This document shows positions 44,478-54,977 of a DNA stretch of 64,000 nucleotides, one piece after another; the stretch's first letter is position 1; the number at the start of each line of letters is the position of its first letter. A program made the translations under genes and the position numbers. This stretch comes from an uncultured Gemmatimonadales bacterium (GTDB lineage Bacteria > Gemmatimonadota > Gemmatimonadetes > Gemmatimonadales > GWC2-71-9). Under the pieces are notes generated by a model, which saw nothing but the letters and a program-made list of their open reading frames with translations, had not been told where the DNA came from and searched no databases. The stretch lies in contig CAVSQW010000008.1 in assembly GCA_963730185.1 (NCBI GenBank), positions 128,001 to 192,000 on the forward strand. Reading direction: 5' to 3'.

Positions 44478-45332
44478 TCAGTCCGCGCGAAAGTGAACCG
44501 GGTCACGCAAACTCTGCAGCTCCCGGTAGAAATACAGGGCCGTCGGTTGCTTCCGCCGGAGGGGAAGCTTCCGGAGAAACTCGAGCTCCTCTTCGGTCGC
44601 GGTGCCGGAGAGGTCCGGATCGGCGAGGAACTGCCGAAACCCGGGCTGGTCGGCCACCGGCTTCGAGGGCCGTTCGACGATCTCGAACCGGCGCACCGGC
44701 TCGTCGGCGGCGCGATGGTCGAGCACGACGTCGAGCGCGAAGGTCGCGAGGTCGACGTCCCAGGACGCGATCAGCGGATCGAGGAACGAGACGCAGCTGT
44801 CCTTGGAGAGGTCGAAGACGTCGGCGTCGAGAAACTCGAGCGCGCTGACCCGGACCTCTTCGTAGCTCCGCCGGGCCACCTTGGCGATGCGGCGGATCCC
44901 GGCCGGATGCTCGAGCTCCCGGTGGGCCACGTCCTTGACCACGTCCACCAGCTTCTGGGTCACCAGCCGTTCCAGCTCGCCGAACGACTGCTGCTCGAAG
45001 ATTGCTCGGATCTCGGGCTCCTTGGCCGGGTTGCACTTTGCCAGCACGAGGGCCCGCACCTCTTCGAACAGCGGCGGGAGGCCGCCTTCGACGTAGCGCT
45101 TCAGGTGCTTGGCGCGCTCGAGCCGGGCCAGCCGGGCCAGCTCCCCCAGCGGCAGCTTCAGGAACCTGTCCATCTTCTCGTAGATGTCGGTCCGTTCCGG
45201 GTCGGGCGGATGCTTCTTGCGGCGGAGGAGTTGGGACACGTACGACTCGGTGACCCGAGCGGCTCGCGCCAGCTCCCGCTGTTCCAAACCCAGGTCGTCG
45301 AGCCGCTGGCGGATCGCGAACGACACATCCAC
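44478..45332 (-). CDS. XRE-family HTH domain protein
   Basis: N-terminal QRELARAARVTESYVSQL HTH; GTG start after GGAGG. Confidence 0.82.
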   Translation of the reverse strand: MDVSFAIRQRLDDLGLEQRELARAARVTESYVSQLLRRKKHPPDPERTDIYEKMDRFLKLPLGELARLARLERAKHLKRYVEGGLPPLFEEVRALVLAKCNPAKEPEIRAIFEQQSFGELERLVTQKLVDVVKDVAHRELEHPAGIRRIAKVARRSYEEVRVSALEFLDADVFDLSKDSCVSFLDPLIASWDVDLATFALDVVLDHRAADEPVRRFEIVERPSKPVADQPGFRQFLADPDLSGTATEEELEFLRKLPLRRKQPTALYFYRELQSLRDPVHFRAD

Positions 45333-45546
45333 GGTCCATCGCCTCCCTGGTTGAATACTAAAGGTAAGTACGCACCACATGATCAATCCAACTGAACAAT
45401 AATAGTTAAGTGGAGACGTCCCAACAAGTCCGTCCGTGTCTCATCCCTATTTCCATCCGACGATCGATGGCGTCCGGCGCCTGCTGGCGCGACTATTGGT
45501 CATCGGATCGTCGCTAACCCGGGGGAGTACAGTGAGAGTCCATGCC

Positions 45547-46017
45547 ATGCCTCGTCCCCAGCGCGCGAGCCCGCTTCCCGATCCATTGCTGAATCATTTT
45601 CACCGGATCCATGCGTCGGAAGCGCGACTGGCCCTGGAGCTGGACGTTCTGTTCCGGCGGACCCGCTGGCTCCCCTTGCGGCTGGCGCTGTCGGACCAAC
45701 GGAAGGAAACCAAGCGCCACGTCGATCGGATTGCCGCGCTGCTGCCCGCCGGGAGCGATGGGATCGGGCTGGACCGGGTGGTGGCGCCCGTGGTCGGGCC
45801 CGACTCGGACCGGTGGGCGCCGCTGTCGGCTGCGGCGGTCGTCGCCGACCTCCTTCAGGCCGCCCGCGCGGCCCTGAGTCTCTATGGAGCGGCCCTCGCC
45901 GCCGCCACCGAGCGGGGCCTGGAGCACGTGGTCCGTCTTCTGACCAGCTCGTTGACTGAAGAGACCGAGACGGAGCAGCGGTTGGCCGCCCTGGCGGCCG
46001 AGGTCCCGCCCGAATAG
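45547..46017 (+). CDS. DUF892/YciF ferritin-like protein, divergent
   Basis: ET..H..RI and L..SL.EE..T..RL..LA pattern; several metal ligands appear lost. Confidence 0.6.
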   Translation: MPRPQRASPLPDPLLNHFHRIHASEARLALELDVLFRRTRWLPLRLALSDQRKETKRHVDRIAALLPAGSDGIGLDRVVAPVVGPDSDRWAPLSAAAVVADLLQAARAALSLYGAALAAATERGLEHVVRLLTSSLTEETETEQRLAALAAEVPPE

Positions 46018-46335
46018 GCGAACGGCCCGAACGATCCGTTCCTTTCTTTGCGGAGCGTTCGCTCTCCGCCGTCCATCCGACCTCCCCGGTCGGTGGGCGG
46101 CGGGGCCGTCGCCTTGTCGGTGGTCACCGGACCATCCATCCATCGAGCGATACCTGCTCGCCGATGGCGAGGCTACGGTTAGGGTCCTTCACCGGCGATA
46201 CCCAGATCGGAGTCCTGACCATGACCAGCACCTCCATCACCCGAGCCTGAACCAGCGCTTGGTGGATACCCTGACGCTGCGCGATCTCTATCAGATGCAC
46301 CACACCCAGGAGTCATCCTGGAGGAGGCCCGGACC

Positions 46336-46458
46336 ATGGCCCGTGACACCGCGGCCTGCAGCGACCTCGTCGCCAACGACCTGATCGTGCCTGATCTCAC
46401 CCGGCTTGACGAGCGGCCGATCTGGTTCCTGATCGAACTCATCCAGGGGGCCGCATGA
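46336..46458 (+). CDS. Small hypothetical protein (40 aa)
   Basis: Strong GGAGGAGG SD; MARDTAACSDLVANDLIVPDLTRLDERPIWFLIELIQGAA; ATGA overlap with the next ORF. Confidence 0.45.
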   Translation: MARDTAACSDLVANDLIVPDLTRLDERPIWFLIELIQGAA

Positions 46459-46676
46459 GCGCCAAGAAGAGGCTGGACGCCCAGCCGAGCCGGCACGCGG
46501 ACGGGGCGACGACTCGCGCCGAGACCCCGGAGCTCGAGGGTCGAATCCCGCTGCCCGAGGAGATCACCGGACGCGCTAGCGGAAGCGGCGAGGATCTGGT
46601 GGCCCTGTTCGACGACCAATCCGCCGCCCACGTCGCCGACGGCTTCCGGGGCGGTAGCGGGGATGTTCCCCGCTGA
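46455..46676 (+). CDS. Small hydrophilic hypothetical protein (73 aa)
   Basis: Translationally coupled to the upstream sORF. Confidence 0.45.
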   Translation: MSAKKRLDAQPSRHADGATTRAETPELEGRIPLPEEITGRASGSGEDLVALFDDQSAAHVADGFRGGSGDVPR

Positions 46677-46849
46677 CGAAGGGTACACCGCGTCATGAAG
46701 GATCCTTCCTGCCGACGTTACGTTGGCTTATATAGCGCTGTCGTATATCCTCATAGTGAGGGGCGACGAAGGCCGGTGTACGGACATCGACCCGAAACGC
46801 AGCCAGGGTTCCGGGCGCCATCGGGCTCCGCAGACGGCCGAGGGCGAGT

Positions 46850-47530
46850 ATGGCGACACCTCGAGCGAAGTCTCCGGCGGATCGGAATCATCCGGTGTCG
46901 ATCGTGCTGATCGAAGACAACCGGCTGGTCAGGGAGGGGCTGGCTCGGTTGCTCCGTGATCAAGGGGATTTCGAGATCCTCGCCTGCGCGGCCGATCCGG
47001 AAGAGGCCTTGCAGAAAACCCGCGAGGCCAAGCCCCAGGTGGTACTGCTGGACGTCGCCCTCGACGACCGCGAGGGTTTCGACGTCCTGGCCGCGATCCA
47101 CCGACAGGCGCCCGAGGCGAAAGTCATCGTCATGGGGCTCTCTTCCTTCGCCGGGCATGTGGCGGACTTGGTGCGGGCCGGCGCGGCCGGCTTTCTGATG
47201 AAGGACGCGTCGCTTGAGGCGTTCCTGAGCACCGTCCGCGCGGTCGTCGACGGCACCGCCGTGTTGCCGTCCGAGCTGACCGGAACGTTGTTCACCGAAA
47301 TCGCCAACCAAGTCGAGCAACGGGACTCGGCGAGCGCGCTCGACGGGGTGCGGCTCACCCCGCGGGAACGCGAGGTCGTCGACATGATCGGCGCCGGTCT
47401 CAGCAACCAGGAAATCGCCAGCCGCCTTGGCATCGCGATCCACACCGTCAAGAGTCACGTCCACAACGTCCTCGAGAAGCTGTCGCTGCGGAGCCGGCTC
47501 GAAGTGGCTGCCTTCACCCGCCGGACGTAG
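46850..47530 (+). CDS. NarL/LuxR family response regulator
   Basis: IEDN, VLLD and GFLMKD receiver motifs; LTPREREV..GLSNQEIA..TVKSHV HTH. Confidence 0.93.
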   Translation: MATPRAKSPADRNHPVSIVLIEDNRLVREGLARLLRDQGDFEILACAADPEEALQKTREAKPQVVLLDVALDDREGFDVLAAIHRQAPEAKVIVMGLSSFAGHVADLVRAGAAGFLMKDASLEAFLSTVRAVVDGTAVLPSELTGTLFTEIANQVEQRDSASALDGVRLTPREREVVDMIGAGLSNQEIASRLGIAIHTVKSHVHNVLEKLSLRSRLEVAAFTRRT

Positions 47531-47591
47531 CTCGCCCAGGGCTGAGTCGATTCTCACTGGCTGGCGATCCGGCTCGTCCGAGCGAGGTGGC

Positions 47592-47637
47592 GGTCGCTCG
47601 GAGGAGCGATTGTCGTCGCCCGGGATCGGGATAGACT
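47592..47637 (+). promoter_or_regulatory. Palindromic site TCGCTC-N4-GAGCGA abutting promoter TTGTCG-16bp-TAGACT
   Basis: Near-identical copy at 51356-51377. Confidence 0.5.
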
Positions 47638-47696
47638 TGGGGCGAGGCCGGGAAAGACCTCGGTCAGCGGAGCCGGACATCCGGCGGGAGACGATT

Positions 47697-47912
47697 ATGC
47701 GTGCTTTGATCATCGGTGGCGTTGCCGTGGCCTGTATCGGAGCCTTCGTGTTCATTCGCGGCGCGAGCTTCACGTCCCACCGCAATGTTCTTCAAGTTGG
47801 AGACGTCAAGGTCACCGCCACCGAGCAACGGGCGATTCCGGCCTGGGCCGGCGTCCTGGGGTTCGTGGTGGGCGCTGGCATGGTGGTGGTTGGCATCCGG
47901 CGTCGGGCCTGA
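47697..47912 (+). CDS. Small two-TM membrane protein (DUF3185-like)
   Basis: GGAG SD; TM-FTSHRNVLQVGDVKVTA-TM-RRR layout. Confidence 0.72.
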   Translation: MRALIIGGVAVACIGAFVFIRGASFTSHRNVLQVGDVKVTATEQRAIPAWAGVLGFVVGAGMVVVGIRRRA

Positions 47913-47919
47913 GCCCGCC

Positions 47920-49992
47920 TCATCGCCCGAGGGGCCATCGGCGTTGGACGCCGATGCTGAGCGCCGACCGGCGATCGGTGAGCCCCGTCGCCAGATCGAT
48001 CCGGAGCACGCCCAGCTGCCCGTCGGCGAGCCCAAAGCGAAGACCCGCCCCTCCGTCGAGATAGAACCGGTCGCCGACCGTCTGGTCCGCCGGCCCGATG
48101 ACCTCGGCCCCGTCGAGGAACAGCCCGGCGGCCACCACCAGCGGTCCGAGGCGGGAGACCGGGTGGTCACCGGCGATTCCCCCATGGATGATCGCCCGAC
48201 CGGCGTTCCGGCCCGCGAGGAGTCCGCCGCTGGCGGCCGGATGGGCTCGGAGGGGAATGGCCCAGGCGAGGTTCGAGCCGGCGATCGGCCAGGTCCCGAG
48301 CGGGGCATCGGGACTGGCCCAGTCGGCGCCGAGCCGAGCGGACCAGGCGGGGCGACCCAAGCCGAGTCCGGAGGCCCAGCTTCCACCGGCGGCGGCGCGG
48401 GTATAGGAAGGGTGGCTGTTCAGGGCGACAGCCCGTTCACTCGTCGCGGTCAGCGTGAGGCGATCGCCTCGGGCGTGGAGCTCGGCCCCGAGCGAGATCG
48501 CCAGGTAGCTGCGATCCGCCGACCATCGGTCGAGTCGCAGAGCGGCCGACGGACGGACCCCGGCGGCCACCCAGCCGCCGAAGCCGACCACCGTCGAGCG
48601 CCGGGTCTCTTCGTGGGTCGTGAGGTTCGCGCGATCCAGCGTGAAGCGAAAACGCTCCCAGCCGCTCTCGAGCCGGACGACGCCCGGGAACCCAAGGTCC
48701 GCGGGCATGTCCAGTCGGAAGACCGCCCGCTGCCGGGCCGACTCCCACCGCCAGCTCGCGCTCAAGAGCTCGCCGGCTCCGGTCGGCGTGGCGACGTCGA
48801 GCCCCACCTCGTGCTGTGCTAGGGCCCGGACCACTCCCGTGAGTGCCAGCCGCCACGCCGGCCCGACGGTCGGTCGCTCGTCGACCGCCGCTCGGACCTC
48901 GACGAGGCCGCCCTGAACCGCCCGGTACTCCACTCCCGATCCGCGGAGCGCCGGGATCTCGGCCAGCCGTCGCCGGGCGAGGGCCAGCCGGGAAGGCGAC
49001 AGCACCGTGCCGTGCGGGACCGAGATCGCCGCGGCGAGGGTCCGGAACCGGATCTTCCGCGTGCCGTCGATTCGGAGGAGGTCCACCGTTGGGCGGTCGA
49101 TCCGGTTCCAGGCTTCGAGCGCGCCGTCCAGATCGCCGGTCAGGTACCGGCTGCTGGCCAGAAGCTGCCAGCCGAGTCCGTCTTCCGGCGCGAGCGCGAC
49201 GTACTCGCGGGCCAACTGGATCGCCTCGGCGTAGCGCCGCTGCTTGAACCGGATACCGGCCAGCTCGCGGGTCACCAACGGCTCGGCGGGGCAGGCCCGA
49301 CCGGCTGCTCGGAGCAGCTGCGCGGCCTCGTCCAGCTGACCGGCGGCGGCGGTGTCGAGCGCCTGATCGAGCCAGGGTGGACAGGGTATCACCTCGGCCG
49401 GAGCGGGGTCCGGGCGGGTAACGGGTTGGGTGGCGGCGGCCGCCGGTTCCGGCCGGACCGCCAGCGCCCACCGATGGGCTCCGGTCCACCGGGTGAGGAA
49501 CCTGGCCTCGGTGGTGGTGGTGAACGGGGCGCCGGCCGGGTCATGGAAGACGACGTGGTCGTCGCTCCAACGGACCAGGACGACGTAGTGGTATCGGGCT
49601 CGGCCGACCTGAATCAGGGCGATGACGGGAACGCCGTCCCGGAGGGTGGCTTGCACCACCTCCGACGTGCCGGTGAGCACCCGGGCATCCCAGCCGCGCG
49701 TGCGGGCCGCCGCCGCGAGGTCGGTGGTACGGATGCCGCCCTCGTCCGGCCGGACCAGGGCGGCGAACTCCTGGGCGTACACGCCGCGCCGCCCCCACCA
49801 CCGCTCGACCATCGCCAGGGCGGCGCCCCCGCAGAGCAGGACCGATTGGGGAAGGTACGGCACGTCGAGCACGGCCGGGGTCGAGCCCGGGTGGGGACTT
49901 CCCGACGCCAACGACTGGGCCGGCAGCGAGGTGCTGCCGAGCCCAGCCGCCAGGCACAGACCCGTCGTGAGCAGCCGGCCGATGGGACGCAC
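47920..49992 (-). CDS. C39-like cysteine peptidase-TPR-POTRA-Omp85 beta-barrel fusion
   Basis: Signal peptide; VPYLPQ..LCG, HYVVL and HDPA triad; TPRs; POTRA-like segment; LRAH and GAGLRF..RIDLA Omp85-like C-terminus. Confidence 0.8.
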   Translation of the reverse strand: MRPIGRLLTTGLCLAAGLGSTSLPAQSLASGSPHPGSTPAVLDVPYLPQSVLLCGGAALAMVERWWGRRGVYAQEFAALVRPDEGGIRTTDLAAAARTRGWDARVLTGTSEVVQATLRDGVPVIALIQVGRARYHYVVLVRWSDDHVVFHDPAGAPFTTTTEARFLTRWTGAHRWALAVRPEPAAAATQPVTRPDPAPAEVIPCPPWLDQALDTAAAGQLDEAAQLLRAAGRACPAEPLVTRELAGIRFKQRRYAEAIQLAREYVALAPEDGLGWQLLASSRYLTGDLDGALEAWNRIDRPTVDLLRIDGTRKIRFRTLAAAISVPHGTVLSPSRLALARRRLAEIPALRGSGVEYRAVQGGLVEVRAAVDERPTVGPAWRLALTGVVRALAQHEVGLDVATPTGAGELLSASWRWESARQRAVFRLDMPADLGFPGVVRLESGWERFRFTLDRANLTTHEETRRSTVVGFGGWVAAGVRPSAALRLDRWSADRSYLAISLGAELHARGDRLTLTATSERAVALNSHPSYTRAAAGGSWASGLGLGRPAWSARLGADWASPDAPLGTWPIAGSNLAWAIPLRAHPAASGGLLAGRNAGRAIIHGGIAGDHPVSRLGPLVVAAGLFLDGAEVIGPADQTVGDRFYLDGGAGLRFGLADGQLGVLRIDLATGLTDRRSALSIGVQRRWPLGR

Positions 49993-50016
49993 CGGTTGGC
50001 CCCGGCGGGGGGCTTG

Positions 50017-50388
50017 CTACTTGACCAGCAGGATGATGATCAGCAGGGCGATGATGAGGGCCGTCGCGCTGATCACGATCTTCTCGTCGCCGCCCGCGAG
50101 GACGGGGTCACCCACGCCGGTCTGTTGGGCCAGCTGGTCGAGCGAGGCCTCGTCGAGGGTGCCGACCCGGGCCGACAGCTCGGCCGGGTTGACCCCCATG
50201 CGGGCGGCCGCGGCCTGGGCCTGATCCGTCGCGAGGAACTGACGAACCGCGTCCCGATTTCCCACAGGACGCGCCGCGACGGCGGCGTCGAGGTCCGCAC
50301 CGGAAACCGCGCTCCTACTCTGGGCGAGCAGGGGAGCGGTGAGGCCGAGCGTGACGACGGCCAGGGACAGCGTGATCTGTTTCAGCAT
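50017..50388 (-). CDS. PA2779-like exported protein with GG motif and C-terminal TM anchor
   Basis: Signal peptide; MGVNPAELSARVGTL..L.QLA helical core; LAGG followed by a hydrophobic tail. Confidence 0.8.
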   Translation of the reverse strand: MLKQITLSLAVVTLGLTAPLLAQSRSAVSGADLDAAVAARPVGNRDAVRQFLATDQAQAAAARMGVNPAELSARVGTLDEASLDQLAQQTGVGDPVLAGGDEKIVISATALIIALLIIILLVK

Positions 50389-50650
50389 GCGGACTCCTCA
50401 AGAGTGCGGGGTGCGAACCCCAGCTACAGTCAGAGTGAGAACTGTACCGGGGATGGGGGGCGTCGCCAATCGATCATTCGGCCGGATTTCGGTGTAGCTC
50501 GAAAGGACCAGTCCCTGCTGGTCCGGGACCCGCCGGAGCGAGTCGGGAGTGGCTCGCATGATCGATGGCGCCGACCCGCGAGCGGCCCTAGGCTTCCCGG
50601 GGCGGCCACCACGTCGGGGCTCGCCATACCAAACCGGGGTCGGAGGTCGT

Positions 50651-51316
50651 ATGCAAAGGATCCAAAGCTGGGTTCGGGCTGGTCTCGTCGTCACCGTCAT
50701 CGGGGCCGTCGGGCTCGCCGGCTGTGCCACCAAGATGCAGACGGGCGCGGTCGTCGGCACCGCCGGGGGCGCCGTTGTCGGCGGTGTGATCGGCAAGGTG
50801 GCGGGGTCCACGGCGAAGGGCGCCATCATCGGGGCCGTGGTGGGCGGCGCCGCCGGCGCCATCATCGGGTCGCAGATGGACAAGCAGGCCCGGGAGCTCG
50901 AGCAGAACATCGAGGGCGCCACGGTGGAGCGCGTCGGCGAAGGTATCCAGGTGACCTTTGCCTCGGGCTTGCTCTACGATTTCGATTCGGATGCCATTCG
51001 TCCCGAGGCTGGCGTCAACCTGCGCGCGCTGGCCGCCAGTCTGGACCGGTATCCCAACACGGATCTGGTGATCATCGGTCACACCGACCAGCTCGGTTCG
51101 TCGGCCTACAACCAGAGCCTCTCGGAACGGCGGGCCACCTCGGCGGCCAGCTACCTCATGGCCCAGGGGGTCAACGGGGGCCGGATCATCACCCGCGGCC
51201 TCGGTGAATCCGAGCCCAAGGCCAGCAACGAGACCGAGGCCGGGCGGCAGGCGAACCGGCGGGTGGAGGTGGCGATCTATGCCAGCAGGGCCTATCGACA
51301 GAGCCTAACGAAGTGA
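50651..51316 (+). CDS. OmpA family lipoprotein with glycine zipper (YiaD-like)
   Basis: Lipobox LAGC; Gly zipper; GHTD, NQSLSERRA and NRRVEV. Confidence 0.93.
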   Translation: MQRIQSWVRAGLVVTVIGAVGLAGCATKMQTGAVVGTAGGAVVGGVIGKVAGSTAKGAIIGAVVGGAAGAIIGSQMDKQARELEQNIEGATVERVGEGIQVTFASGLLYDFDSDAIRPEAGVNLRALAASLDRYPNTDLVIIGHTDQLGSSAYNQSLSERRATSAASYLMAQGVNGGRIITRGLGESEPKASNETEAGRQANRRVEVAIYASRAYRQSLTK

Positions 51317-51355
51317 CCTGGCGGGGGACCAACCGGCGGGGCCGGGCCGCTCGAA

Positions 51356-51377
51356 GGTCGCTCGAACGAGCGATTGT
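51356..51377 (+). promoter_or_regulatory. Palindromic site TCGCTC-N4-GAGCGA
   Basis: 20/22 identical to 47592-47613, at a similar distance from the start codon. Confidence 0.5.
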
Positions 51378-51463
51378 GGAGCGCCGTCCGGCAGCCGAGC
51401 TTTGCCTCAGACGCCGACCAGTCTTCGAGGTAGTCCGGCGGTTCCTCTAGTGGGGGGTGCGAC

Positions 51464-51820
51464 ATGAAGATCTCCAATAGCGTGACGTGGCTGATCGCGT
51501 CCGCCGTGATGGCCGGGCCGCTCTCGGCGCAGGGCCGCCCGGGTGAGGCGATCTCCCGGACGACGGACCCCGTCCCGGTGGCGGCCCAGGGTGCCCTCGA
51601 TCGGCCGGCCACGCTCGGTCGAGACCGGCCGGCCCTCCAGTCGGAGCTCGATCGGACGCCCGACCAGCCCGGCTCGGCTGACCGGGAGGGTGAGTTCGAG
51701 CCAGATCCGGGGTGGAGCACGGTCCCCGAGCCCGCCACCATGGTGCTGCTGGCTACGGGCCTCGGCCTTCTCGCCGCCGTCCCGATCGGTCGGCGGCTCC
51801 GGGCCCGCCGGCAGGGCTGA
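51464..51820 (+). CDS. Small PEP-CTERM protein
   Basis: Signal peptide; VPEPATMVLLATGL-TM-RRLR tail. Confidence 0.85.
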   Translation: MKISNSVTWLIASAVMAGPLSAQGRPGEAISRTTDPVPVAAQGALDRPATLGRDRPALQSELDRTPDQPGSADREGEFEPDPGWSTVPEPATMVLLATGLGLLAAVPIGRRLRARRQG

Positions 51821-51920
51821 ACGGCGGCCAGCAGGATGACCGGATGCAGGCGGACGCCTGGTCCGGCGAACAGCAGATACGAGCGGGGTTGGCTGACCCG
51901 CCTACGAAGGAGACGGATCA

Positions 51921-52289
51921 ATGTCGGAGAATCGCGGAGTCGCGCAGAGCGAGCCATCCACTGAGGCCGACCAGGGTGGGGTGCCGGACGTCGATGGGCG
52001 CCCGGTGCGGGCGGCGACGATGGGACGCCGGCTGGTCGATGCGGTCGATCGGGGACGGGAAGGGGTGGCGAAGCAGATCGACGGTGCGGCCCTTCGGGCC
52101 GGGCAGGTTTCCGGGGTGGCGGATCGCACCGCCGACCGGCTGGGGTCCGCGGCCAAGTACGTCCGGGACCATGACACGCGCGACCTGATGGATCAGCTGG
52201 TGGGCCTGGTGCGGTCCCATCCCGGCAAATCCCTTCTGGCGGTCGCCGCGCTCGGTTTCGTGACCGGCCGGGTGTTGCGCCGAACCTGA
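51921..52289 (+). CDS. DUF883/ElaB-YqjD-like tail-anchored protein
   Basis: VRSHPGKSLLAVAALGFVTGRVLRR C-terminus. Confidence 0.72.
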   Translation: MSENRGVAQSEPSTEADQGGVPDVDGRPVRAATMGRRLVDAVDRGREGVAKQIDGAALRAGQVSGVADRTADRLGSAAKYVRDHDTRDLMDQLVGLVRSHPGKSLLAVAALGFVTGRVLRRT

Positions 52290-52303
52290 CCGCGGAGTCG
52301 GCG

Positions 52304-52768
52304 ATGCCCCCCGGCGAACGCCCGGTCGCGGAAGTCCTGACCGGCATCGCCGGGAACCTCCAGGCCATCGCGCGGGGGGAAGCTGCGCTGGCCATTGCCC
52401 AGGCCTTCGAGCGGGCCCGGCGGGCATCGCTCGCCCTCGGCTTGCTCGGCGTCGGGGTGGTCTTGGTGGTCGTGGCCTTCGGCGCGGCGCTGGTCGGGGT
52501 CGTGGCCCTGCTCTCCGAGACCATGGCGTTCTGGCAAGCGACGAGCCTGGTCGGCCTGGTCGCCCTCGGCTTCGGCGGAGCGGTCATCATCGGGGGCCTG
52601 GCCCGACTTCGTCGTTCCCGAGAGACGGCCTCCGCCCTCACCACCCTGGAACCGACGGCCGGCCATGGAAACGAACTCCCGCACCATCGAGCAGGCGCTC
52701 TTCGCGGAACGGGAAGCCCTGGGGCACAACGTCGCGGAGCTCGAGCAGCGGACCCAAGCCGCGGTTAG
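52304..52768 (+). CDS. Holin-like/DUF1469 (YqjE-like) membrane protein
   Basis: R.EAALA lead-in with two TM helices; typical position after the DUF883-like gene. Confidence 0.65.
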   Translation: MPPGERPVAEVLTGIAGNLQAIARGEAALAIAQAFERARRASLALGLLGVGVVLVVVAFGAALVGVVALLSETMAFWQATSLVGLVALGFGGAVIIGGLARLRRSRETASALTTLEPTAGHGNELPHHRAGALRGTGSPGAQRRGARAADPSRG

Positions 52769-53111
52769 CTGGCGGGCCCACTTCGACCGATCGCCCGGCC
52801 TGATGCTCGGTCTGGCGTTCGGCGGGGGCGTGTTGGTGGCCCTGCTGGCGCGTGGCAGGGTGCCGCCGCCCGGTCCCGAGGCCGACTCCGGGGCTCCCCG
52901 GCGGAATGGGAAGGCGGCGAGGGCCGCGAGTGGGCTGCTGGGCGCCCTCGTCGCCGCCGGAGCGAGGCGCGCCGTTCGGTATCTGGATGAGCGAGCGGGG
53001 ACCCGGCCGGTCCCGGTCGAGTCACCATCCCCGATCAAGGGCCCGCCTCGCTCGGAAATCGATCGGACGAGCGATACCGCGGGGGACTTCGCCCCGCGAG
53101 CTTTCGACTGA
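52665..53111 (+). CDS. DUF3618/YqjK-like membrane protein
   Basis: IEQ..ERE.LG.NV.EL..R, WR.HF..PGLMLGLAFGGG. Confidence 0.65.
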   Translation: METNSRTIEQALFAEREALGHNVAELEQRTQAAVSWRAHFDRSPGLMLGLAFGGGVLVALLARGRVPPPGPEADSGAPRRNGKAARAASGLLGALVAAGARRAVRYLDERAGTRPVPVESPSPIKGPPRSEIDRTSDTAGDFAPRAFD

Positions 53112-53169
53112 AGGTGGGTGAATGCCCGCCCGAAGGTTAGGTCGGTCTCTCGTCATCCGGGTGTTGCCA

Positions 53170-53562
53170 ATGAAGATCTCCTCGATCGCAATCTGGCTCA
53201 TGGCCTCCGCCGCGATCATGCTGCCTCCCGCGGCGCACGCCAGCCAGGCCGCCGGCGTGCGGACGCCGGACCGTGTCGCCGACCGTCCGGCCGACGCGGG
53301 CGCTTTGCCGTCGAGCGTGTTCCTCTCGGTGATCCGGGGCCAGCTGGACCGGCCGGTCACCCCGGGCTGGGAGCAATCATCCAACCAGGCGCCGCCCGAT
53401 GAGGCGACCGCCCGGAGCGGCTCGGATCGCGGGACCGGCGAGCTCGAGGCGGGGGCAGGGTGGACGACCGCGCCAGAGCCGGCGACCATGGTGCTCCTGG
53501 CCACGGGGTTGTTGCTGCTCGCGGCGGTCCCGGTCGCGCGACGGCTCCGGGTCAGGATCTGA
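53170..53562 (+). CDS. Small PEP-CTERM protein (paralog of 51464)
   Basis: MKISS signal; APEPATMVLLATGL-TM-RRLR tail. Confidence 0.85.
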   Translation: MKISSIAIWLMASAAIMLPPAAHASQAAGVRTPDRVADRPADAGALPSSVFLSVIRGQLDRPVTPGWEQSSNQAPPDEATARSGSDRGTGELEAGAGWTTAPEPATMVLLATGLLLLAAVPVARRLRVRI

Positions 53563-53884
53563 TCCGGCCTGGCGATGCGGCACCCCGGTGGGTTCGTCCT
53601 CCCCGGGTCGGATCGGCCGGCGACCGGACCCGGCTCATCGTCCGATCCTGGCCCCCGGCGACGAGCAGGGCGGCCAGTCGGCCCGTCAGGGCCGCCCCGG
53701 TGGACCCGGCGCTCCGCGGACGCCAATCGATCTGAGCGGGGATCCGGATGACCCCTGGGGGTCTCGAGGGCCGGCTGTCGGACGATGACGGCGAGACGGT
53801 ATCCGCCGTCGGGTCTAGACCAGGTGGCGCCCGTTGGAGCGATGGTGAATAGCCCGAAAATCATCTACGCTTGAGCAGAGGACG

Positions 53885-54316
53885 ATGTCCGGGCTGCTCA
53901 ACCATCCGAAGGATGTTCTCGTGCCGACGCTACGACCGCTCAACCGTCCGCATCCCGCCCGCCGCAACGTCGGCGCGCTTGGCCTGGCGACGAAGACCCT
54001 GGCTGCCTTGAGCCTGTTCCTGTTGGCCGCGTGTCCTGGGACCAAGCCGATCAAGGAGTTGCTCGACGACCCTTCCCGTTTCAATGGCGAGACGGTTCGG
54101 ATCGCGGGCGAGGTGACCCAGTCGGTCGGGGCGCTGGGAGTCGGGGTCTATCAGGTCAACGACGGGACCGGCACCCTCACGGTCGTGAGTCAGGCCGGGA
54201 AGGGCACCCCACGCACCGGGGCCCAGATCGGGGTAGAGGGCACCTTCCGATCCGCCTTCACCCTCGGGTCGACGACCGTCGCCGTCCTGATGGAACAGAA
54301 GCGGAAGAGTCCATGA
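53885..54316 (+). CDS. OB-fold lipoprotein
   Basis: LAAC lipobox; IKELLDDP.RF.G..V...G.V and DGTG motifs. Start uncertain. Confidence 0.72.
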   Translation: MSGLLNHPKDVLVPTLRPLNRPHPARRNVGALGLATKTLAALSLFLLAACPGTKPIKELLDDPSRFNGETVRIAGEVTQSVGALGVGVYQVNDGTGTLTVVSQAGKGTPRTGAQIGVEGTFRSAFTLGSTTVAVLMEQKRKSP

Positions 54317-54705
54317 ACAGGCGTCGACTGTTACTCGCGGGGCTCGCGACGACCGCCCTCCTCGCCTGCGGCAAAGGCGGGTCACAATCGGCCGCCGACA
54401 GCACTAGGAGTCTCGGGCTGGCCCAGCCCGACAGTACGTACCCTCTCAACGACCGGCCCGCCCCCGCGACGCCAGCCCGATCCCCCGCGACGCCAGCTCC
54501 ATCCCCCGCGACGCCAGCCCGTCCCACCTCGTCCCAGCCGAACTCGGGCTCAGGCTCGATGCTGGCCACGGGTGTCGGGGCCGTGGCCGGTAGTGCCGCC
54601 GGGGCCGTGGTCGCGGCGGTGACCGCGAATCGCGATGTGGTGATCGCGGTCGGCACGCCGATGGTCGTCACCCTGAACGGGCCGCTGACGGTCCAGGCCC
54701 GATAG
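54313..54705 (+). CDS. Pro-rich lipoprotein with glycine-zipper tail, possibly internally deleted
   Basis: LLAC lipobox; PATP repeats; GAVAGSAAGAVVA. Confidence 0.6.
   Translation: MNRRRLLLAGLATTALLACGKGGSQSAADSTRSLGLAQPDSTYPLNDRPAPATPARSPATPAPSPATPARPTSSQPNSGSGSMLATGVGAVAGSAAGAVVAAVTANRDVVIAVGTPMVVTLNGPLTVQAR
54461..54523 (+). repeat. Coding tandem repeat, 3 x 21 bp
   Basis: CCCCCGCGACGCCAGC core x3, encoding PATPARS/PATPAPS/PATPARP. Confidence 0.85.
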
Positions 54706-54716
54706 GAAGGCACTCC

Positions 54717-54977
54717 ATGGATATCATCACCCTGATCATCGTCGGCCTGGTGGCCGGGCTTCTGGCCAGTCTCGCCGTCGGTGGCGTCGGCTACGGCATC
54801 CTGGGCGACATCGTGATCGGCATCTGCGGCGCCTTTCTGGGCAGCTGGCTGTTCGCCACGTTGGGGGTGCGGGTTCCCTTCGGCGGGATCGGCGGCACGA
54901 TCTTCGTGGCCTTCATCGGCGCCGTCGTGCTGCTCCTGATCCTCGGGCTGTTCCGAAGAGGGCGACGCTCCCAATGA
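54717..54977 (+). CDS. GlsB/YeaQ/YmgE stress membrane protein
   Basis: GLVAGLLA..G.GILGDIVIGICGAFLG..AFIGAVVLL. Confidence 0.92.
   Translation: MDIITLIIVGLVAGLLASLAVGGVGYGILGDIVIGICGAFLGSWLFATLGVRVPFGGIGGTIFVAFIGAVVLLLILGLFRRGRRSQ

Follow-up and report, generated by a model that had tools for sequence, protein, structure and literature searches.

We describe a two-gene module in a 64,000-nucleotide stretch of DNA (here, the window) from an uncultured Gemmatimonadales bacterium (GenBank assembly GCA_963730185.1, contig CAVSQW010000008.1, positions 128,001 to 192,000). Its large gene almost certainly encodes a C39 peptidase-TPR-POTRA protein ending in an Omp85-fold barrel, and its small gene encodes a partner with a Gly-Gly (GG) motif and a hydrophobic tail. 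We regard the module as a conserved, apparently undescribed Omp85-derived subfamily and as a form of the PA2778/PA2779 pair, catalogued yet unstudied, to which a barrel has been fused. It appears to be more than a domain fusion, since a helix is predicted at the barrel gate and since related loci keep the pair without the protease.

Both open reading frames lie on the minus strand where the initial annotation had placed them, at 50388..50017 (123 amino acids [aa]) and 49992..47920 (690 aa), with 24 nucleotides (nt) between them and a GAGGAG 5 nt 5' of the partner ATG. The small partner gene comes first, as in PA2778/PA2779 pairs. The motifs read earlier from the large protein were all found, namely, Q49, C54, H135 (within HYVV), H150-D151-P152, VDLLRIDG (303-310), ARRRLAE (339-345), VDERP (370-374), LRAH (581-584), GAGLRF (648-653), and RIDLA (664-668), as were LAGG (97-100) and the hydrophobic tail of the small protein. 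Alternative reading frames across the region were ruled out, as homologues conserve the minus-strand frame, and a promoter/terminator scan gave no signal above chance. The features of the module are as follows.

50017..50388, minus strand: small partner gene, 123 aa, PA2779/DUF6627 family (NCBIfam NF033919, ESM Atlas)
50323..50388, minus strand: partner signal peptide, residues 1-22 (by eye)
50269..50316, minus strand: predicted docking helix of the partner, residues 25-40 (complex model, alignment)
50089..50100, minus strand: L-A-G-G, residues 97-100, likely cleavage site with the cut after G100 (motif conservation)
50020..50088, minus strand: hydrophobic tail after GG, 23 residues, predicted membrane helix (hydrophobicity, model)
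47920..49992, minus strand: large gene, 690 aa, with signal peptide, C39, TPR, POTRA, helix, and Omp85-fold barrel (Pfam, NCBIfam, AlphaFold, Foldseek/VIA)
49450..49875, minus strand: C39-family peptidase domain, residues 40-181, with Q49, C54, H135, and D151 (Pfam, profile matches)
49105..49374, minus strand: TPR domain, residues 207-296, main predicted partner-binding surface (Pfam, AlphaFold, complex model)
48877..49089, minus strand: single POTRA domain, residues 302-372 (profile search, AlphaFold, hhalign)
48814..48858, minus strand: hydrophobic helix, residues 379-393, predicted to take the slot of Omp85 strand beta-1 (AlphaFold, hhalign, periodicity, covariation)
47944..48810, minus strand: barrel strands beta-2 to beta-16, residues 395-683, 15 in the model (AlphaFold, Foldseek, VIA)
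48241..48252, minus strand: loop-6 LRAH, possible counterpart of (V/I)RG(F/Y) in Omp85 proteins (alignment, hhalign)

In the large protein, Pfam detected C39_2 (E 4e-9), C39 (E 1e-8), and TPR families, with PF03412 and PF13529 above their gathering scores (35.2 versus 22 and 37.7 versus 24 bits, respectively). Active-site residues Q49, C54, and H135 are kept in 126 of 127 aligned rows covering the domain and D151 in all 127, and C39 profile matches included 8hf4, 6mpz, and 4ry2. The His-to-Asp spacing of 16 equals that of LahT in the available part of its description. C204 and C234 are conserved and likely form a disulfide. A lipobox pattern occurs in 2 of 49 homologues, each time at the catalytic Cys, and the window protein has none. 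The POTRA domain is indicated by a match to the BamA profile 9ccg_A (E 1.8e-4) and by PF07244 in homologue P0230 (E 9e-8). Among 8000 scored candidates, 453 were homologues of the large protein, and when its C-terminal 390 residues were used as the query, all 96 listed 50%-cluster representatives of at least 600 aa also carried C39; the architecture is therefore not a chance arrangement.

An AlphaFold model built from 145 sequences reached a predicted local distance difference test score (pLDDT) of 93.1 and a predicted template modeling score of 0.89. The best Foldseek matches were TamA (E 1.2e-14) and BamA, and VIA comparison with Pseudomonas aeruginosa TamA gave a Z score of 26.5 and a root mean square deviation of 4.4 over 350 aligned residues. 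The C-terminal half also fell in Omp85 clusters of the ESM Atlas (0.97) and matched Omp85 by hhalign (97%, E 7e-11). Together, these methods assign a POTRA plus Omp85 fold to residues 302-683, so that the C-terminal half does model as POTRA and beta-barrel and the domain architecture first read from the sequence holds. Pfam, in contrast, matched neither POTRA nor Omp85 in the window protein; among 32 homologues, Omp85 reached E <0.003 in 4 (1 above the cut-off), and a single one passed the POTRA cut-off. PF01103 misses the window barrel yet finds six other genes of the same genome. Because the Pfam Omp85 models miss this barrel, databases label these proteins as C39 peptidases only. The large gene is accessory in its genome, given the six other Omp85 matches there and its presence in only 22 of 301 genomes of the phylum.

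The barrel was expected to have 16 strands; the model instead gives 15 strands and a helix, loop 6 being preceded by 10 strands and followed by 5, whereas eleven precede it in Omp85 barrels. The segment that follows POTRA and precedes the first strand, residues 379-393, is helical in the model (pLDDT ~91 to 95). By hhalign, this segment falls onto beta-1 of 29 canonical Omp85 proteins from the same genome and relatives, and the turn after it aligns with the canonical beta-2/beta-3 turn. Its hydrophobic moment is helical (0.27 to 0.30 at 100 degrees versus 0.16 to 0.22 at 170), while that of canonical beta-1 is strand-like (0.16 versus 0.56), although periodicity alone is an imperfect guide, as strands b5 and b13 also score ratios below 1. 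A spacing of 36 residues at the gate segment recurs in 129 of 145 rows, and by eye the segment has a like character in protease-less and partner-less forms. In covariation analysis of 370 rows, R389-I680, which links the helix to the last strand, came 24th among all pairs, with a z of 5.6; the pairs outranking it link neighboring strands in many cases but not in every one, so that the support it lends is modest. In loop 6, where Omp85 proteins carry (V/I)RG(F/Y), R582 of LRAH is invariant (145 of 145), and hhalign sets LRAH a few residues off the canonical VRGY. Very probably, then, as judged from the model, the conserved hydrophobic helix fills the slot of the gate strand beta-1. The 15-strand model would count against a canonical Omp85 member but not against an Omp85-derived one. 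According to the available text of one study, Omp85 barrels have 16 beta-strands with beta-1 paired to beta-16, and strand 1 of BamA binds the substrate beta-signal (PMC11116518).

The small protein passes NCBIfam NF033919 (PA2779) at 40.4 bits (cut-off 40) and falls in DUF6627 clusters of the ESM Atlas (0.93 to 0.94), and all 49 aligned partners match the PA2779 model at E values up to 0.1. Q23, A36 in the docking helix, and AGG before the tail are invariant in all 49. The large protein matches NF033920 (PA2778) over residues 42-296 at 67.2 bits, below the cut-off of 150. Gene order, C39 plus TPR, and a partner with signal peptide, helical core, GG, and hydrophobic tail are thus common to our module and PA2778/PA2779. 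The full-score PA2778 example L269, however, is ~305 aa long, begins like a lipoprotein (LLGC), and lacks a barrel, whereas the window protein adds POTRA and the barrel; the L269 partner has ~15 more residues after its hydrophobic run.

Close homologues were found at 57 GTDB loci, 55 of them in Gemmatimonadota; the other two are labeled "bacterium" and, on a 3.5-kb contig, "Polyangiaceae." Among 10 distant homologues looked up, the sole one with an organism label was from Vicinamibacterales. At the 57 loci, tblastn placed the partner directly upstream in 52, with short variants in 2; in the remaining 3, the sequence stops no more than 220 nt from the protease domain. At the set thresholds, the large gene was present in 22 of the 301 phylum genomes, the partner in 25, and both in 21; the 22nd genome with the large gene (G157) has a weaker partner upstream. 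In a wider set of 186 related loci, pooled from several searches and not de-duplicated, the partner is directly upstream in 160, which bears out the conserved pairing first proposed. Of the other 26, nine lack DNA on the upstream side, the partner is divergent in L195 and probably broken in L225, and none is seen in 15. Frameshifts occur at a few loci (L009, L015, and L049/G043). A search of a plasmid collection matched neither protein, and a search for shorter forms of 30 to 238 residues, a range that cannot test unfused 300-aa forms, returned fragments only.

Two kinds of partner-less relatives deserve description. Metagenome contigs L181-L196 form a distant C39-TPR-barrel clade at ~29% identity to P0269, with LRGH in loop 6, a helix-like beta-1 slot, the catalytic Cys kept, and no partner upstream. 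Two close homologues, L140:1335-3542 and L132:1567-3774, also have no upstream partner; the catalytic Gln and Cys are kept in L132 but have been lost from L140.

The explanation that we favor, while holding it as a whole to fall somewhat short of an even chance, is that the large protein would sit in the outer membrane as a barrel and, through a TPR-POTRA arm in the periplasm, grip the first helix of the partner. The partner, caught beneath the outer membrane, would have its greasy tail brought to the seam that the helix lines and on into the membrane; the C39 domain would cut after Leu-Ala-Gly-Gly and so trim off the helical domain. A 23-residue membrane peptide would then be the product and the helical domain its leader, and protease-less forms would keep the helical domain attached. 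Since both proteins have signal peptides, cutting would occur outside the cytoplasm, and we infer that the protease is located in the periplasm. A stronger version, which strikes us as rather unlikely, would make the module a dedicated outer-membrane insertase for alpha-helical peptides, combining a 15-stranded Omp85 barrel, a membrane helix as gate, leader capture, tail insertion, and GG clipping. Such an insertase would mirror, from the periplasmic side, a transporter that processes bacteriocins.

Structure prediction of the complex bears on the capture step. The complex model scored 0.62, compared to 0.00 for the best of 3 controls; 116 of 157 solved complexes attained the score mark, as did 2 of 215 mismatched pairs, and these counts apply roughly here, as our own alignments were used. 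Model runs have at least 72% of contacts in common, with partner pLDDT of at least 58. Predicted contacts join TPR residues 208-284 and POTRA residues 309-310 and 350-372 to partner residues 25-40 and 70-80, and invariant A36 falls inside the interface. The model indicates that the partner probably docks on TPR-POTRA and not on the protease. By this geometry, partner residue 80 would lie close below the barrel, ~20 residues from the tail. A docking-helix score was clade limited (held-out protease loci had a median of -1.8, against a shuffled 95th percentile of 0.2) and is suggestive only: in a weak test, four barrel-less genomes, three of them of one family, fell in the shuffled range, and four stand-alone partners from barrel-bearing genomes scored above it. 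For inter-protein covariation across 160 paired loci, the positive control of 25 predicted TPR-partner contacts failed (mean z 0.4), so this analysis says nothing on the tail.

Neither GG site nor tail was positioned confidently in the complex model, and no contact at the active site was named. The absence of such a contact would be expected if the partner served the barrel uncut, as a cofactor, plug, or assembly factor, and the protease acted on other periplasmic substrates, and the catalytic Cys kept in the distant clade without an upstream partner points the same way. We nevertheless consider this quite improbable, since GG, which 141 of 144 protease loci retain, decays where the protease is missing (5 of 16 loci), and since partner-less L140 has lost catalytic residues. 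In the five protease-less loci that retain GG, the preceding Leu-Ala is lost, and the decay fits release from constraint. Leu occupies position -4 from the cut in 122 of 141 GG partners. Cleavage of the partner at GG, the reaction originally suggested, thus remains likely as far as motif conservation can tell. C39 fold, Cys-His-Asp plus Gln, hydrophobic -4, Ala -3, and Gly-Gly are common to the module and to the PCAT/AMS enzymes (ComA, LahT, PCAT1). The module differs in having no ABC domain and in that leader Leu -7 and -12 are absent (Leu, Ile, Val, Met, or Phe at frequencies of 0.04 and 0.09 in 141 partners). In the available text on C39 transporters, the PCAT leader carries Leu(-12)-X3-Glu(-8)-Leu(-7) before GG and the product is the part after GG (PMC6363468); with the LahT substrate as described there, the partner matches at Leu -4 and Ala -3 but not at -7 and -12. 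The absence of those leucines would fit docking on TPR in place of the PCAT leader groove.

The 16 protease-less loci carry the partner beside a TPR-POTRA gene that has no C39, with the barrel matched in 14. The partner stop lies 57 to 271 nt from the TPR start, leaving no room for a protease domain. A C39 domain like that of the window was matched elsewhere in none of 5 protease-less genomes, using a single-protein query and with two genomes below 85% completeness. Since these loci keep TPR-POTRA-barrel and partner, the barrel appears to be more than a protease tether. The protease-less forms might be read as permanent ties between the two membranes, the intact module then being a regulated bridge in which the uncut partner, anchored in the inner membrane, would bind the outer-membrane barrel until GG cleavage unties it. 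Such a bridge would account for the protease-less pairs and for the retained docking helix, and neighboring genes are often of envelope or stress type (LuxR in 16 and OmpA-family lipoprotein in 11 of 57 loci). However, the combined reach of the two proteins looks short for the periplasm, and the gate helix and the position-specific conservation of the tail are left unaccounted for; we find the bridge improbable.

The tail itself is distinctive. The stretch after GG is 20 to 30 residues long, most commonly 23 (73 of 146), with Ile, Val, and Thr abundant at fixed positions, and partner positions 106-120 are strongly conserved across 160 partners, more so than the helical core. The median Kyte-Doolittle score in 19-residue windows is 3.15 (minimum, 2.61). 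The last four residues hold no Lys or Arg in 104 of 160 partners and two in none, so there is no basic cluster. That the tail, and not the helical domain, is the product and reaches the outer membrane is what we infer from its greater conservation, from the missing basic cluster, and from the product of C39 transporters being the part that follows GG. The idea that the first tail residues supply beta-1 in trans was dropped, as AlphaFold gives a helix there and the tail is kept in barrel-less genomes.

The initial annotation had instead proposed that the protease clips the partner at GG to free it from the inner membrane. The partner would then be anchored there, and the freed 78-residue helical domain would be the product, which may pass through the barrel or stay on it. 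The clipping stands as the likely reaction, but release as its purpose is doubtful, and we rate this alternative as somewhat unlikely. In its favor, the hydrophobicity of the tail is typical of a membrane anchor, predicted docking runs through the N-terminal domain, and LRAH is kept in loop 6, as in transporting Omp85 proteins. Yet barrel and partner persist in protease-less loci, where there is nothing to release, and the N-terminal domain is less conserved than a tail that has no basic retention cluster. Furthermore, the cut site is 3 to 4 residues from the membrane segment while docking would take place just under the outer membrane, a distance problem given the commonly held width of the periplasm.

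Several observations weigh against tail insertion into the outer membrane with trimming by the protease. The unfused pair works with a lipoprotein protease and no fused barrel although its partners are similar, which also favors inner-membrane anchoring. Sec is expected to leave so strong a membrane segment in the inner membrane, and the route of a tail this hydrophobic out of that membrane is an unexplained step. AlphaFold renders the tail as a plain helix, from residue 103 and at low confidence there. In four genomes with a GG-less partner, barrel matches were limited to generic TPR or Omp85 ones, and the tail can thus be retained where this barrel is absent. An upstream partner is missing at 15 loci: 12 of one distant clade plus L132, L140, and L190, with 3 having <500 nt of upstream sequence. 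At three protease loci (L130, L131, and L138), Leu-Ser-Gly-Glu replaces Leu-Ala-Gly-Gly beside an intact C39, either a natural specificity variant or an uncut form. Finally, 119 rows with a sufficiently long barrel were thinned to 67 for a tree, which shows two changes in protease presence and eight in GG; with just 2 independent changes, the link between protease and GG cannot reach significance (independent-pairs test, 1 to 2 pairs, p = 1).

Stand-alone copies of the partner were also found. A second partner gene with LAGG and tail lies ~7 kb before the window (L063:1501-1875; G000:C8:120290-120658), with no protease gene within 1.5 kb on either side, and further copies occur in G188, G237, and G259. 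Given such copies, one barrel protein may serve several substrates. At L108, L109, and L112 (G185, G220, and G103), GG-less partners sit between EVE-like and membrane-dipeptidase-like genes, named by sequence reading, with no barrel match.

Compared to other systems, the module has the POTRA plus barrel fold and aligned beta-2/beta-3 turn motif of TamA and BamA, and a possible counterpart of their loop-6 Arg motif, but, at 15 to 18% identity, has one POTRA, C39 and TPR in front, and a predicted helix for beta-1. GlyGly-CTERM/rhombosortase and PEP-CTERM/exosortase systems likewise pair a motif and C-terminal membrane helix with a dedicated protease nearby. CTERM sorting signals have a basic cluster after the membrane helix; here there is none, the protease is soluble and papain-like rather than intramembrane, and there is one short substrate type rather than many passengers. 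PlpD/FplA and metallo-Omp85 proteins, as described in the available text of two papers, also place a periplasmic enzyme before a single POTRA and an Omp85 barrel (PMC11116518; PMC4104836). Our module has a cysteine peptidase with TPR in place of a lipase or PF00149 and a dedicated partner gene, and PlpD, in the same text, keeps strand 1. By analogy with this fusion of enzyme to POTRA and barrel, the protease might be exposed at the cell surface, an arrangement formerly put forward for PlpD (type Vd) and suggested at first for the window protein. We give this very little credence: the PlpD patatin domain stays periplasmic in the available text (PMC11116518), and the C39 domain is attached to TPR-POTRA, itself the predicted docking site of the exported partner.

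A catalogue of ten Omp85 subfamilies has, in its available part, no C39 subfamily (PMC4104836), in line with the initial annotation, which knew of none. A search of the mainly open literature found no published C39-Omp85 fusion, 15-stranded Omp85 protein, or mention of DUF6627, although absence from print is not thereby proven. In the available text of the papers found, PA2778 and PA2779 receive passing mentions with no function given, PA2778 being named only as a possible type VI secretion system toxin (10.1101/733030). Papers found on the AlgU regulon, a candidate link of PA2779, do not name it.

The module lies among small envelope and stress-type genes (window 45436-54977), including those for a DUF892 ferritin-like protein, a LuxR response regulator, a YiaD-like OmpA lipoprotein, a holin-X family membrane protein, and a transglycosylase-associated protein, with groES/groEL and a VIT1 gene just upstream of the cluster. 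The LuxR regulator and OmpA-family lipoprotein are its best conserved neighbors, and no third conserved gene of the module emerged at the 57 loci. A 71-aa two-helix membrane protein (47697-47912, plus strand) converges on the large gene, recurs in 8 of 57 related loci, and had no significant match in a Pfam search. Directly upstream of groES, a 302-aa protein (44478-45386, minus strand) combines an N-terminal XRE-type helix-turn-helix with a long C-terminal region of no family. Two short PEP-CTERM-like proteins (51464-51820, plus strand, 118 aa; 53122-53562, plus strand, 146 aa) score 21.2 and 18.7 bits in Pfam (cut-off 20.7) and have very small, low-complexity passenger regions; the partner tail differs from theirs in having no basic cluster.

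A family occurring in nature whose beta-1 slot holds a helix would offer a ready-made test of the role of the gate and of the substrate range of Omp85 proteins, and two small genes suffice to test the module. Through it, the unstudied PA2778/PA2779 pair, which is present in Pseudomonas aeruginosa, gains a predicted docking surface, a likely cleavage site, and natural protease-less controls.

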